A stretch of 64,000 nucleotides of DNA from Acidobacteriota bacterium (GCA_965209055.1 OZ242374.1:4640001-4704000), one strand, 5' to 3'; shown: positions 4,881 to 26,217, numbered from the stretch's first letter. Program-made: numbers and translations. Notes: generated from the sequence alone by a model not told the origin.

Positions 4881-4891
4881 GGCAGTGGGGG

Positions 4892-4930
4892 TAGGAAATC
4901 CGTTGCTCTGTCCAACTGAGCTACGGGATT
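4892..4930 (-). other. tRNA 5'-half-like sequence forming the left att arm of E1
   Basis: Minus strand reads AATCCCG TA GCTC AGTTGGACA GAGC A ACGGA TTTCCTA (acceptor strand, D-arm, anticodon 5' strand, 7-nt loop); no T-arm follows. Confidence 0.75.
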
Positions 4931-4972
4931 GATCCTTTCTTTTCAACCCTTTATCCCAGTTTTTCCCTCGAA

Positions 4973-6058
4973 TCATTTCCCCTTGCTCCCGACCCGTTGC
5001 CTGTTTGTTGCCTGTTGCGTTTGTGAGTCTTCGTTAGCCTGTGCCTCTCGAATGCTCTGGAGCGCATGCGAACTGACGTACCCCGCGTAGCGCATCGTCG
5101 TGCTGATCGCAGAGTGTCCCATCAGCTTCTGCACCGTCCTCACGTCCACGCCCCGCATCAGCCAATGGCTGCAACGGAATCGCCTCAGGTCGTGAAACCC
5201 AACCTTCAATCCCACCCGCTCGGCAGCACGACGTAGAGACTTGTCGGGATTCACCCATCTTGTCCCGGTCCGGCTGTTGACGAAGACGTATGGGATGTTC
5301 AGGTAGCGAACCAGCCCGGCCAGATATCCGGCGGCGTACTTCGAGAGCGGAATCTCTCTCGGTTCGTCGTCCTTGGTGAACTCCACCCACAACATCCGCC
5401 GACTCAGGTCCACCCGGCTCCAGGTGAGCGACAACGCTTCTCCCTTTCGAATCCCCGTCTCGCCGATCACTGCGATCATGGCTTGCATGTAAGGGTTGTC
5501 TATCGCCTCGACCAGGTCGCGGAACTGTTGAACCGCCAAAGGCCGGAAGACCTTCTTCGGCTCCTTTAGTTTGGGGAACCGAACCAGCGGATGTGTGTCC
5601 ACTTCCCCACACTCCAGTGCGTAGGAAAACAGCTTGCTGATGGCCGCAATGTCGCGGTTCACTGTGGCTGGCTGGACCTGTCCCTTCCGTTTCGCGACGT
5701 AGCGGTGGAGGTCCTTGCGCTGGAATTCCTTCAGGGGAATGTTTCCCAGCATGGCGTTGAGGCTCTTGAACGAGAGCGCATAGCGGCGCAAGCAGCGCAG
5801 ACGAGGTTTGCAATACTCCTCGAAAAAACGCTCGTAGAAACTCTGGACCGTCCAGATGGTGCGTTTCCCACCGGCGAGCTCGCGCTTGAGCTGCTTCCAG
5901 GTGCCGTCCAGGATGCTCGACTCGATTCGTGTTTGAAGTGCCTGTGCGCTCCGGTAATTGGGGGCGTACATTCGGAGCCGACCGGATCCGTTCGGCCAGT
6001 ACTTGCTGACGACATACCGCTGTCTCCCCCGGCGGTCCTTCACCTTGTAGATGCCCAT
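4973..6058 (-). CDS. Tyrosine recombinase / phage-type integrase of E1
   Basis: GIRKGE (R), TKDD (K), HDLRR (HxxR), LMGH, TTMRY catalytic set; AAGGAGG RBS. Confidence 0.95.
   Translation of the reverse strand: MGIYKVKDRRGRQRYVVSKYWPNGSGRLRMYAPNYRSAQALQTRIESSILDGTWKQLKRELAGGKRTIWTVQSFYERFFEEYCKPRLRCLRRYALSFKSLNAMLGNIPLKEFQRKDLHRYVAKRKGQVQPATVNRDIAAISKLFSYALECGEVDTHPLVRFPKLKEPKKVFRPLAVQQFRDLVEAIDNPYMQAMIAVIGETGIRKGEALSLTWSRVDLSRRMLWVEFTKDDEPREIPLSKYAAGYLAGLVRYLNIPYVFVNSRTGTRWVNPDKSLRRAAERVGLKVGFHDLRRFRCSHWLMRGVDVRTVQKLMGHSAISTTMRYAGYVSSHALQSIREAQANEDSQTQQATNRQRVGSKGK
4998..5016 (+). repeat. Putative integrase arm-type site (TGCCTGTTTGTTGCCTGTT), left end of E1, inside the int 3' end
   Basis: Identical at 12759-12777 and 24762-24780, near-identical at 21847-21864; each lies 99-109 bp from a 7-bp core. 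Confidence 0.75.
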
Positions 6059-6123
6059 GCATCTCCTCCTTTCTGGATCCGGGTTCTTCGCCGTGGGGCG
6101 AATCGTACCACGGCTCCAGAGAA
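6059..6123 (-). promoter_or_regulatory. Integrase promoter/leader (extended -10 TGgTACGAT, RBS AAGGAGG, 15-bp motif CGGCGAAGAACCCGG)
   Basis: Same sequence as 22908-22972 in E2; the motif recurs at both right ends. Confidence 0.6.
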
Positions 6124-6642
6124 TCGGCGTAGGCGTTCAGGTCTTCCAAGGCGAAGCCGCGGTAGCGACTACTACCTCCAGTTTAGGGTGAATCCCTCTA
6201 AGGCGGGTGACAAAACTGTCGTCAAAGTCATTCGTAAAAAATCGCTACGCGAGTTGAAGAAGATCGACGAGGCGCGGCCGGGACTCAAATGCGGCCTGGC
6301 GCGGGGTGCCCTCATTGTCGAGCCATCCGTGCCATCGGTTCCCTTCCTCACCCAGTAATCGGCGCGGTCCTTTCCACAGCGCCCAGGGACTTTTCCACGG
6401 AAAAACGGGCGTAGTTCTCTTCTCTTCAAGTCGGTAAGAGCAAGTAGCTAGTTGCAAATAACCGAACCGGGCGGGATGTGGAAACCATCGGAAAGGGAAT
6501 CCGGACCCGGCAGGGTAATGACGGCTTCGTCACAGGCGCAGCCGGCACAGGATCAGAGCAAAGGAGGAAGAGGCTTTTAAGGGGAGGACAAACAGAGACG
6601 AGGAAGGGGTGCGGAGGCACCCGCTCGACTGAGGGAGGCATT

Positions 6643-24050: not shown

Positions 24051-24060
24051 TCGGTCTTCT

Positions 24061-24374
24061 TCCGGGCCTTCCCGCAGGGAGAATTGAGACGGGAGCGACC
24101 CCCCCAGGGGGTGTTGCGCAAATGTGAATTGCGCAACGCCCCCGCGCCCGCACCGGGCAGCAAAAAGGGGGGGTCGCTCCCGTCCACCTCCGATTTCCCC
24201 GTGCAGGCGCCGGCGTTCGGGGGTAGGGGACCGTAACTGACTGAAAGGAAAACAGATCGGGGAAAGCAGAGGTGTGAATCACCGGGACCGCCTTTTGTGA
24301 ATCCACCCCCCATGTCCCATTCACATCCCGGATCAGGCGCGAGACCCCTTGACGCACACCCGAACCGAGTCTCC
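24061..24374. other. Conserved structured non-coding block of E2
   Basis: Homologous to 11067-11380; same nested hairpins. Confidence 0.7.
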
Positions 24375-24409
24375 AAAAACCATTGCGGCACCGAGAGTGG
24401 TCATCTCGA

Positions 24410-24607
24410 TCACAACTGAGACGGAGCGATCCTCCACCCGCGGTGCGCTGCCATCCAGGAGCGCAGACCCTTGGCGGCCACATGCTCCGGATCGACACCG
24501 ACGAGGACGACCCTGTCGTCCTCGTCGGCAATCGGCAGTTTGAACGCCAAGGAGCGCCGAGTCTTCCCCACCGTGCCGTAGTACACTTGCCGGGGATGCC
24601 GATTCAT
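24410..24607 (-). CDS. Small hypothetical protein (65 aa)
   Basis: MNRHPRQVYYGTVGK...; occupies the slot held by the NucS-like gene in E1; no clear RBS. Confidence 0.35.
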   Translation of the reverse strand: MNRHPRQVYYGTVGKTRRSLAFKLPIADEDDRVVLVGVDPEHVAAKGLRSWMAAHRGWRIAPSQL

Positions 24608-24888
24608 GGGAACGTCGCGCCGTTGGAAGCCGGACACCTTCGGCCTCAGGCTGAGTCCTGCGGTGGAGCCAAACGGTCGGCAAAGCCTATCGGATAAGGT
24701 CTCTGAGCCAGGCAACGGAAGGGGGAAAACGGGCGCGGCGGCGTTCAGGAACCGATTCGGCTGCCTGTTTGTTGCCTGTTCAGTATGTCAAACATGGGGA
24801 GTCAACCACCTTACCGGTCCGGCGAAGAACCCGGTAACATATTGAAAACGTTAACGTTCGGTAGTCTTTGACTGTGAGACAGTTGGGA

Positions 24889-26217
24889 CTAACAGTCCCC
24901 CCTCCCAACCTGGCGCGGCTTGAGAAGCCGCTGGAGCCGGGGGCTCTCCTCAAGAATGATGGTCTCGGACCGGTTCGGACCGGTGGAGATGATGGAGATG
25001 TCCGCACCGGTGAGTTCGCCAAGCCGATGCAGGTAGGACTTGGCCTTCTCCGGCAGGTTTTCGTAATCCTGGATGTCGGACGTGTCCTGCTGCCAGCCGG
25101 GATGGGTCTCGTAGATGGGGCTCACGTCTTCGAGAGCTCCCACGTCGGTGGGAAAACTCGTCAACCGGCTCCCCCGGTAGCGGTAGCCGGTGCAGATCCG
25201 AAGCTCCTTCAAGTGGTCCAGAACGTCCAATTTGGTGACCACCAGCGTGTCCACGTGGTTGATCAGATTGCTGTACCGGGCCACGACGGCATCGAACCAT
25301 CCGCAACGCCGGGGCCGCCCCGTGGTGGCGCCGTACTCGACGCCCCGCTCCCGGATCTCCTCCCCTTCCGCACCCTCCAGCTCGGTGGGAAACGGGCCGC
25401 CTCCAACCCGGGTCGTATAGGCCTTGGTGATTCCCATCACTCCGTCGATGGCGCCCGGCCCCACGCCGCTGCCGGTGCAAGCTCCGCCGGCCGTGGCGTT
25501 CGAAGAGGTGACGAACGGGTAGGTGCCGTGATCCACGTCCAGCAGCGTGCCCTGGGCGCCCTCGAAGAGGATGTTCTTCCCCCGCCGGATCTCCCGGTTC
25601 AGATACTCCGCCGTGTCGGTGACATAGGAGGCGATCCGTTCGCCGATGCCCAGATAGGTCTCCTCGATCTGGTCGGTGTCCACCCCGCCGCAGCCGTAGA
25701 CCCGGTCCAGAATGCGGTTCTTCAAACCCGCATAGTTCCGGAGCTTCGAGCGAAAGAGCCGCGGTGACAACAGGTCGCCGACCCGGATGCCCCTCCGGGC
25801 CATCTTGTCCTCATAGCAGGGTCCGATGCCCCGGCTCGTGGTCCCGATCTTCGCCTTGCCCAACCGGCGTTCCTCGGCGCCCTCCAACAGCCGGTGGTAG
25901 GGCATGATCAGGTGTGCCCGGTTGCTGACATGAAGCCGCCCCCGCAAGGAAAATTCCCCCAGCGCCAGCAGCTCCTCTTCCAGAGCCACCGGATCCACGA
26001 CGACCCCGTTGCCGATGACACAAGCCTTGCCGGGGTGCAGGATCCCGGACGGGATCAGGTGGAGGACATACTTGGCGCCCGCCACCAGAACGGTGTGCCC
26101 GGCATTGTGGCCACCCTGGTAGCGAGCGACGACGTCGAAATGACGTGTCGTCAGATCGACGATTTTTCCTTTGCCTTCGTCACCCCATTGGGTGCCGACG
26201 ATCACGACGTTAGCCAT
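24889..26217 (-). CDS. purA: Adenylosuccinate synthetase
   Basis: [35 protein letters not shown]. Confidence 0.98.

Follow-up and report, generated by a model that had tools for sequence, protein, structure and literature searches.

The 64,000-nucleotide stretch of DNA analyzed here (referred to as the window; positions 4640001-4704000 of C1, the single contig of the 6.08-Mb Acidobacteriota genome G000) carries two integrative elements, E1 and E2, each of which encodes a tyrosine integrase and is inserted into the loop of a hairpin resembling repetitive extragenic palindromic (REP) sequences. Both belong to a family of 26 elements in this genome, and it is highly probable that the REP stem-loop is the chromosomal attachment site (attB) of this lambda-type integrase family, and that the family descended from integrases acting in the anticodon loop of tRNA-Arg genes. 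The anatomy of the elements, their target, an empty site, the ancestry, recent copying and the intact catalytic residues are each directly supported by the observations presented below. The host is a sponge-associated bacterium, and near-identical DNA was also found in sponge, coral-reef and marine metagenome runs. The comparison set comprised 31 genomes including G000, with the genus represented by G000 and eight other species.

Results

Insertion sites of E1 and E2

E1 (window positions 4882-12892), whose G+C content is below that of its surroundings, is bounded by a 7-bp direct repeat, TAGGAAA (coordinates of all features are given in Table 1). When the flanks of E1 are joined and one copy of the repeat is retained, the sequence GTGGGGGT-AGGAAA-ACCCCCAC-TCC is obtained, which on the minus strand reads GGAG-TGGGGGT-TTTCCT-ACCCCCA. 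E2 (21738-24899) is bounded by a 15-bp repeat, GGGACTAACAGTCCC, and its joined flanks read GGGGGAC-TAACA-GTCCCCC-CTCC. Both palindromes had been proposed in the initial annotation of the window and were correct on joining the flanks, and the two elements do lie between convergent genes, as stated there. The comparison palindromes listed in that annotation were as described at 21646, 49750 (loop AGGAAA), 52279 and 60261; the one at 21622 contains a mismatch in the stem.

The two elements have in common approx. 85 bp beside the stop codon of the integrase gene and approx. 130 bp at the far end (75-81% column identity), and this similarity halts at the core. Their integrases are approx. 90% identical. 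No complete tRNA gene was found in the window by ARAGORN, and the junctions therefore do not rebuild a tRNA; a search of window positions 4500-25500 against Rfam matched no family at E values up to 0.1.

A family of 26 elements inserted in REP-like hairpins

Searches of G000 revealed 26 full-length copies of the integrase (88-100% amino acid identity; tblastn), plus fragments, and 30 copies of the integrase-distal end (blastn). When every integrase was matched to the closest correctly oriented distal end, elements el1 to el26 were delimited; they range from 2.6 to 25 kb, five being minimal (2.6-2.7 kb), and by arithmetic on these sizes amount to approx. 260 kb, or approx. 4% of the genome. Both junctions could be read in 25 of the 26; el26 (6074479-6077182 of the contig) reaches the contig end, so that only its distal junction is readable. 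Since el26 is cut there and the wrap-around does not continue the element, the start and end of the assembly appear to lie inside a repeat.

In all of the 25 elements with both junctions, we observed a direct repeat of 7-15 bp and, on removal of the element, a perfect palindrome. The rebuilt stem was at least 5 bp long in every case and at least 7 bp in 21, and a GGAG/CTCC foot was present in 24 (el11 lacks it). Of 20,000 positions drawn at random from G000, 4.6% were in loops closed by perfect stems of 5 bp or more, and 0.5% in loops whose perfect stems measured 7 bp or more; insertion into palindromes is thus far beyond chance. The claim of the initial annotation that a cargo-carrying integrative element uses an abundant REP family as a multi-copy attB is thereby supported, with 26 elements and 25 of 25 readable insertions in REP-like loops, and it is further upheld by all eight paired elements of the sister species and by the empty E1 site of two relatives (see below).

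A scan of G000 for GGAG followed by a 7-bp stem, a loop of 4-7 nt and the complementary stem gave 619 matches, which include some sites counted in two registers and correspond to approx. 600 hairpins. These are dominated by a few stems and by TTCC-type loops, the commonest being TTCCA, TTCCTA and TTTCCT; their extragenic location was checked in the inspected regions. We refer to the hairpins as "REP-like" because a cognate REP-associated tyrosine transposase (RAYT) is not established. Occupancy differs between subtypes: the TAACA/TGTTA subtype has full elements at 16 sites and a solo end at one, with another 12 sites free; 80 GCGATTGGAAATCGC sites remain and four have received elements; and the exact E1-type site exists as one free copy versus four occupied ones. 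The 7-mer TTGGAAA lies within a hairpin in 172 of its 850 occurrences and TAGGAAA in 147 of 378 (junction copies included), and the insertions at these 7-mers are all in hairpins (five of five and four of four, respectively).

Several pairs of elements are nearly or completely identical: el16 and el24 (100% over 2796 bp), which lie 1.56 Mb from each other and have unrelated flanks; el11 and el26 (99.96%); and el8 and el14 over 10.5 kb, save for a 1.9-kb insertion. Identical copies at different loci show that copying within the genome has been recent. Four solo distal ends (contig positions 416713, 474727, 484586 and 4708647) and approx. six integrase fragments (2499788-2500677 and others), one of them a frameshifted copy, suggest that older elements are decaying.

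Target classes and the basis of specificity

The core sequences divide the 25 elements into six groups: class A, GGGACTAACAGTCCC (eight elements including E2, plus el26 by its distal junction); class B, GGGACTGTTAGTCC (seven); class C, TAGGAAA (four, including E1); class D, GATTGGAAATC (four); class D', GATTAGAAATC (one); and class E, TTGGAAA (one, el12). Classes A (loop TAACA) and B (loop TGTTA) occupy one REP subtype, GGAG GGGGGAC TGTTA GTCCCCC, in opposite orientations. The initial annotation had stated that the elements share one orientation relative to the GGAG foot; this is true of E1 and E2, but the seven class B elements lie inverted in REPs of that type. For classes A and B, identity between the attachment site of the element (attP) and attB reaches into both stems and spans 14-15 bp. 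The single member of class E, el12, has the attP of class D in a REP with the same loop but different stems, and the half-stems also differ between elements within one class.

Class C forms a single clade in the integrase tree, while A and B are interspersed, with five changes required for either; the integrases of E2 (class A) and el9 (class B) are 99% identical. Only nine fixed residue differences separate the REP-borne clade from two tRNA-linked proteins (G004g, a long branch, was excluded). The intermixing of A and B, together with the case of el12, points to DNA identity in the overlap, rather than recognition by the protein, as the main address, which is the ordinary rule for tyrosine recombinases. 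Specificity appears to reside mostly in a 7-nt stretch of DNA, with near-identical proteins serving at least six target classes in both orientations. Mosaicism through recombination between elements is an alternative source of the A/B intermixing.

Empty sites and elements in sister species

All eight other species of the genus retain synteny of the genes on either side of E1 and E2, and neither element is present there in any of them. The exact predicted empty site of E1, GTGGGGGTAGGAAAACCCCCACTCC, was found between the same flanks in G008 (the closest relative, approx. 96% identical in the E1 flank) and G004. At the place of E2, G008 and G001 carry a REP with a TAACA loop in the same orientation, with differing surrounding hairpins. 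The expectation that relatives would show the reconstructed REP was therefore realized exactly for E1, in G008 and G004; for E2, the orthologous position holds a REP whose loop is the same but whose sequence is not identical. Since intact REPs are present at the empty sites of the relatives, the half-stems are not part of the element.

An integrase homologue was detected at E values up to 1e-60 in 15 of the 31 genomes, counting G000, and, within the genus, in seven of the eight other species (10 matches in G004, which also has 27 distal ends, and none in G001). All eight paired elements of the sister species (six in G004, one each in G005 and G007; L080/L060 is one of these pairs) rebuild REP-like palindromes. 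In the L085/L068 pair the REP, GGGCGA-CTGGAAG-TCGCCC-CTCC, was read by eye and an overlapping alternative palindrome is also possible. By eye, most of the 28 listed distal junctions end in a half-stem followed by CTCC.

A fusion of the distal and proximal ends (an attP-type junction) was sought in the chromosomes and none was found in G000. The same search matched the tRNA fragment of G003 described below. It also revealed locus L072 (around positions 410818-410949 of G004:C1), in which a distal end is joined via the core to a truncated proximal end, an arrangement as would be expected of an attP or of a decayed tandem pair.

tRNA-Arg ancestry of the family

The integrase-proximal ends of all of the elements match the 5' half of the tRNA-Arg(tct) gene of G000 itself (positions 4-34/41; blastn). 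The E1 end is 96.6% identical to it over 29 nt (positions 4-32), and the class D match extends to position 41, through the anticodon loop. In G003, the end of an 86%-identical integrase gene lies 46 nt upstream from an intact tRNA-Arg(tct) gene of the same orientation, and approx. 47 kb away a distal end (84% identical over 120 nt) abuts a displaced 5' half of this tRNA, which is 42 nt long, identical in sequence, and ends in the anticodon loop. This is a classical island in a tRNA gene (tDNA island), with the crossover in the anticodon loop and the 5' half supplied by the island.

The integrase of G010 (71% identity) is co-oriented with a tRNA-Arg(tcg) gene, and homologues at 38-52% identity are convergent to tRNA-Arg or tRNA-Leu genes. 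An adjacent tRNA gene was found at 11 of the 14 non-REP-type loci scanned versus none of the five REP-type loci in relatives. Maximum-likelihood analysis placed G010 as the first branch and G003 as the second, with all of the REP-borne integrases in a clade of 97/89 support. The initial annotation had named a location of the other copies mostly in tRNA genes or non-palindromic DNA as counter-evidence; this was for the most part not seen, with one tRNA-borne relative, in G003, which is phylogenetically basal and explains the origin of the family rather than contradicting REP targeting.

The 7 nt of the anticodon loop (CTTCTAA, read on the strand of the integrase) make up the ancestral overlap. 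The overlap of class D', TTTCTAA, is one change from this sequence, and that of class D, TTTCCAA, is two changes away. This series, together with the common REP loops, leads us to infer that the REP hairpin is a mimic of the anticodon stem-loop.

A phage origin was also considered and rejected: the best-matching phage integrases do not exceed 27% identity, and no close relative is present in IMG/VR.

Integrase, attP and a proposed mechanism

The E1 integrase matches PF00589 with 89.5 bits (cut-off 27.1; E 2.8e-25). R204, K229, H289, R292, H315 and Y324 are invariant in all 37 aligned family members and fall in motifs aligned to the structures of P2-type (5c6k integrase) and Xer recombinases; from this alignment and the established features of the family, we take them to be the catalytic R...K...HxxR...H...Y set. 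The 18-mer GCCTGTTTGTTGCCTGTT (up to two mismatches) has 47 matches in the genome, all at element ends: every one of the 26 distal ends and 18 of the 26 integrase 3' ends carry it, with both sets oriented alike, as do three solo ends. Its direct copies lie approx. 110-130 bp either side of the core, and we propose that it is a candidate arm-type site. The attP cores are imperfect palindromes, e.g. TTGGGAC-TAACA-GTCCCGT and TCGGGA-TAGGAAA-TCCGTT.

These features suggest that the elements would be moved by a lambda-type (heterobivalent) tyrosine integrase, with the two arms of the REP stem acting as inverted core-type binding sites, strand exchange taking place within an overlap of approx. 7 bp made up of the loop plus the closing base(s), and the GCCTGTTTGTTGCCTGTT copies flanking attP serving as arm-type sites. 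Which REP subtype is entered, and which way round, would depend not on the protein but on whether the attP overlap and the REP loop are identical. The ancestor would have recombined in the anticodon loop of tRNA-Arg and supplied the 5' half of the gene; the REP would now stand in for the anticodon stem-loop, with the tRNA half persisting as a vestige in the attP arm. The positions of strand cleavage, the Int-binding sites, the double-stranded nature of the substrate and excision are parts of this scheme that we infer. The change from a single-copy tRNA target to hundreds of neutral ones would account for the expansion to 26 copies with different defence cargo.

Alternative explanations

Complementary half-stems flank each element, as in a transposon with inverted ends, and could in principle be its terminal inverted repeats or be made upon insertion, with no REP present beforehand. 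There is next to no probability of this, given that an intact REP with both chromosomal flanks occupies the E1 empty site in G008 and G004, that the similarity of the elements stops at the core while the half-stems vary within a class, and that hundreds of REPs of the same design are unoccupied. It is also very unlikely that the integrase needs only the overlap of approx. 7 bp, the REP pattern reflecting survivorship of insertions in neutral intergenic repeats. The overlap 7-mers are indeed common outside hairpins (TTGGAAA in 678 of 850 occurrences, TAGGAAA in 231 of 378) and all of the insertions seen are intergenic or neutral, but 25 of 25 insertions here and eight of eight in relatives are centred in a palindrome, which goes beyond merely being intergenic. 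Survivorship is further opposed by the extension of attP-attB identity into both stems in classes A and B, by the likeness of the GGGA/TCCC attP arms to both the REP stems and the anticodon stem, and by the occupation of 16 of 28 REPs of the TAACA/TGTTA subtype.

The same enzyme could also act on the same target in the form of folded single-stranded hairpins, in the manner of integron attC sites or the CTX phage, with resolution by replication. Both partners can fold, every attB being a perfect hairpin and every attP core an imperfect palindrome that shares its loop; single-strand enzymes (RAYTs and the IS200/IS605 transposases) are known to recognize REPs, the targets here; and replicative resolution would account for the rise in copy number. 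Against this, the ancestors use an ordinary tRNA gene, leaving an intact gene and a displaced fragment, and long conserved attP arms with direct 18-mers are the anatomy of a double-stranded intasome; the match to IntI4 is confined to a short stretch (residues 272-327, E 1.8e-7) and is weaker than those to P2-type and Xer proteins. In view of the descent from tRNA-gene integrases and of the direct repeats in the long arms of attP, we regard the single-stranded route as unlikely, if less so than survivorship.

Several observations weigh against the REP stem-loop as attB of a tRNA-derived lambda-type family. The requirement for a stem has only moderate support, as the overlap 7-mers are themselves enriched in REP loops, and insertions within a class do not count as independent events. 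In the six relatives other than G008 and G004 the E1 intergenic region has a wholly different sequence, and an identical E2 empty site occurs in no relative, the six other than G008 and G001 carrying other REPs. The integrase tree was rooted at the midpoint only. The N-terminal domain scores 24.8 bits against Int_N (PF24624), below the 27-bit cut-off, and no gene for an excisionase (recombination directionality factor) was found, the E1 open reading frames (ORFs) upstream of the integrase gene being unshared or without a Pfam match. Finally, contigs assembled from short reads (four of the 23 metagenome runs found, window positions 19500-27000) break off at the boundaries of the elements and at the REP cluster. 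No excised circle, attP junction or empty-site read of this strain was seen in them; because they break at repeats, they give no evidence either way on excision. Two contig joints span E2 (21677 to 24885 in one run, and 21669 to 24885 with 14 extra letters in another), but their sides are shorter than 30 nt, and as unreliable joints they were not counted as empty sites.

Cargo and other features

The tyrosine integrase gene is the only gene conserved across the elements. The cargo was surveyed in 20 elements by means of 85 ORFs of at least 230 amino acids, selected for their length and third-position G+C and not counting the integrases (the set excludes the six small elements of 2.6-3 kb and E1). 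Type I restriction-modification (R-M) proteins (HsdR, HsdM, HsdS), type III Res/Mod, GmrSD, Eco57I-like, Mrr and Schlafen/AlbA_2 proteins and components of MADS are the commonest products; in addition, the set contains five DDE transposases and four other integrases. The predicted cargo thus consists mostly of R-M and other defence genes. In E2 we found no clear gene other than that for the integrase. The ORF at 21832-22911 was rejected as the E2 integrase, being in the wrong frame relative to the conserved protein, and so was the 101-codon ORF at 24410-24715 as a gene: its copies contain stops and lack a stable start, and conservation is no better at the protein than at the DNA level.

Table 1. 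Features of the E1 and E2 regions (positions within the window).
Feature	Position	Strand	Remarks
E1 left core/overlap TAGGAAA (attL side)	4882-4888	.	Left REP half-stem GTGGGGG lies outside
E1 integrase-proximal arm	4889-4972	-	
Vestigial tRNA-Arg(UCU) 5' half in E1 arm	~4889-4920	-	Acceptor, D-arm, 5' anticodon stem
E1 tyrosine integrase	4973-6058	-	361 aa; Pfam Phage_integrase
18-mer GCCTGTTTGTTGCCTGTT within 3' end of E1 integrase gene	4999-5016	+	Candidate arm-type Int site, P' side
E1 cargo region	6643-12660	.	
E1 cargo: weak HNH-like ORF	6643-7698	-	
E1 cargo: Eco57I-like methylase/restriction protein	8025-10820	-	931 aa
E1 copy of nested-hairpin repeat	11066-11425	-	~300 bp, 66 copies
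E1 cargo: NucS-domain endonuclease-like ORF	11605-12660	+	
E1 integrase-distal arm	12755-12885	+	~130 bp, 30 copies in genome; 18-mer at 12760-12777
E1 right core TAGGAAA	12886-12892	.	Followed by right REP half-stem ACCCCCAC and CTCC foot
Unoccupied REP-like unit GGAG CGGCGGT TTTCTT ACCGCCG	21646-21669	+	
E2 left core GGGACTAACAGTCCC	21738-21752	.	15 bp
E2 integrase-proximal arm	21753-21818	-	With tRNA-Arg 5'-half vestige
E2 tyrosine integrase	21819-22907	-	Starts MGIYKVKD at 22907
E2 copy of nested-hairpin repeat	24044-24421	-	66-copy repeat
E2 integrase-distal arm	24755-24884	+	18-mer at 24763-24780
E2 right core	24885-24899	.	15 bp; followed by CCC and CTCC foot
Unoccupied REP-like unit CGGCGGT AGGAAA ACCGCCG CTCC	49750-49773	+	Loop identical to E1 target loop

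The nested-hairpin repeat (approx. 300 bp, no Rfam match) occurs at 66 places in G000. It is present in the backbone of most of the REP-loop elements and also exactly at one end of an approx. 2.9-kb unit of a second integrase family, of which it may be the attachment site; alternatively, it may be a shared module. This second multi-copy family is of the P4 type (Arm-DNA-bind_3, Phage_int_M and Phage_integrase domains) and comprises approx. 16 full-length copies with 60-100% amino acid identity (68099-69355 and 2675718-2676974 of the contig, both on the plus strand, and approx. 14 others; L129 and L130), three of which lie inside el12, el13 and el15.

An insert of approx. 1.9 kb carrying an identical 539-aa ORF is located at one and the same position, just upstream of the integrase start, in el2, el14 and el22 (L110:1086-2702, L121:9772-11388 and L126:1091-2707). 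The pairs el8/el14 and el9/el2, which are otherwise 97-100% identical, represent forms without and with this insert, which may be a site-specific insertion sequence (IS) that separates the integrase gene from its promoter.

The left flanks of the elements show that a target hairpin is often the second of two paired units, in which a GGAG-CGGCGGT-type REP and a linker of approx. 35 bp (containing a TAGCGAC...GAAGAA-like motif) are followed by an inverted REP ending in CTCC; this resembles the organization of bacterial interspersed mosaic elements (BIMEs) and of REP doublets forming hairpins (REPINs). Weak matches to the Y1_Tnp domain of IS200-like transposases were found at 1142970-1143203 and 3750831-3751106 of the contig (both on the minus strand; 30.8 and 23.6 bits, cut-off 23) and in a 395-aa ORF (L129:459-1646; 31.9 bits), and one of them adjoins el5. 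These ORFs could be candidate RAYTs for the REP-like family.

Discussion

If the REP stem-loop is the attB of these elements, the enzymes acting on REPs would include a new class, as the literature searched describes REP targeting only for ISs with DDE/DEDD transposases, and it treats lambda-type integrases as single-site enzymes; a keyword search of the open-access literature yielded no tyrosine integrase that targets REPs. The evolutionary path would also be readable, from a single essential tRNA-Arg target to hundreds of neutral look-alikes, with an intermediate surviving in a sister species and the tRNA half remaining as a fossil in attP. Specificity written in DNA would be of practical interest for retargetable integration of large cargo. 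Sponge symbionts are rich in defence genes, and the family may show how such bacteria spread R-M and defence cargo within a genome.

A broader proposal, which we put forward tentatively and consider somewhat doubtful, is that the REP array constitutes a genome-wide set of docking sites for overlap-addressed integrases, i.e. a natural, DNA-addressed multi-site platform that arose from a tRNA-Arg integrase by mimicry. Were this true, substituting a few bases of the attP loop, or inverting the loop, would direct an element to another REP subtype or reverse its orientation; neighbouring chromosomal DNA could be captured or shuffled when an element end recombines with any other matching REP; and the presence of at least 20 different defence cargos on one integrase backbone would be explained.

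Comparison with known systems

Integron integrases (acting on attC) and Xer-dependent elements (CTX phage, and the integrative mobile elements exploiting Xer, IMEX, at dif) likewise combine a tyrosine recombinase with a short palindromic or hairpin site at which cassettes or elements accumulate. The elements described here differ from these in encoding their own, putatively heterobivalent integrase with candidate arm-type repeats, and in that their target is a dispersed host repeat rather than an attC array or dif.

A precedent for specificity that follows the attP core of a tRNA-loop integrase is mycobacteriophage Ms6, the integrase of which was retargeted by an engineered change of this core (PMC1762012). 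As described in the part of that report considered here, the change was made between T-loops of tRNA-Ala genes, while in the present family the variation is natural, comprises at least six overlap classes and addresses a repeat that is not a tRNA gene. Mobile R-M units linked to integrases have also been reported (PMC2853133); the resemblance lies in a cargo dominated by R-M genes beside an integrase, but the abstract of that report mentions neither a target in REP loops nor a 26-fold intragenomic family.

With the REP-targeting ISs, the elements share insertion in REP palindromes, many copies per genome and a neutral, abundant target. The survey of Tobes and Pareja (2006; PMC1525189), in the sections consulted, places such ISs in five families (IS3, IS110, IS4, IS256 and IS5), including IS1397 and ISKpn1 (IS3) and IS621, ISPpu9, ISPpu10 and ISPa11 (IS110), and names no tyrosine recombinase. 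Compared with the ISs described there, E1, E2 and their relatives are not members, as they use a tyrosine integrase instead of a DDE/DEDD transposase, and they further differ in cargo of up to 25 kb, in long attP arms and in identity between the attP and attB overlaps.

Anticodon-loop tDNA islands (Williams' sublocation class A) resemble the elements in having a tyrosine integrase and a crossover in a 7-nt loop between symmetric stems. The G003 and G010 elements are true tDNA islands, with an intact tRNA-Arg gene and a displaced fragment, and share their attP arms with the REP family. Going by the portion of the Islander report used here (PMC4383910), which gives 2083 islands with anticodon-centred sites and 159 islands with a 5' fragment versus 3760 with a 3' fragment, these two tRNA-borne relatives belong to the rare type that supplies the 5' half. 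Unlike tDNA islands, E1, E2 and the other elements of the REP clade have no tRNA at either end and a multi-copy target; the window elements are descendants of tDNA islands, not members. The elements resemble tDNA islands in their enzyme and in the geometry of their sites, and REP-seeking ISs in the ecology of their target, and are full members of neither group.

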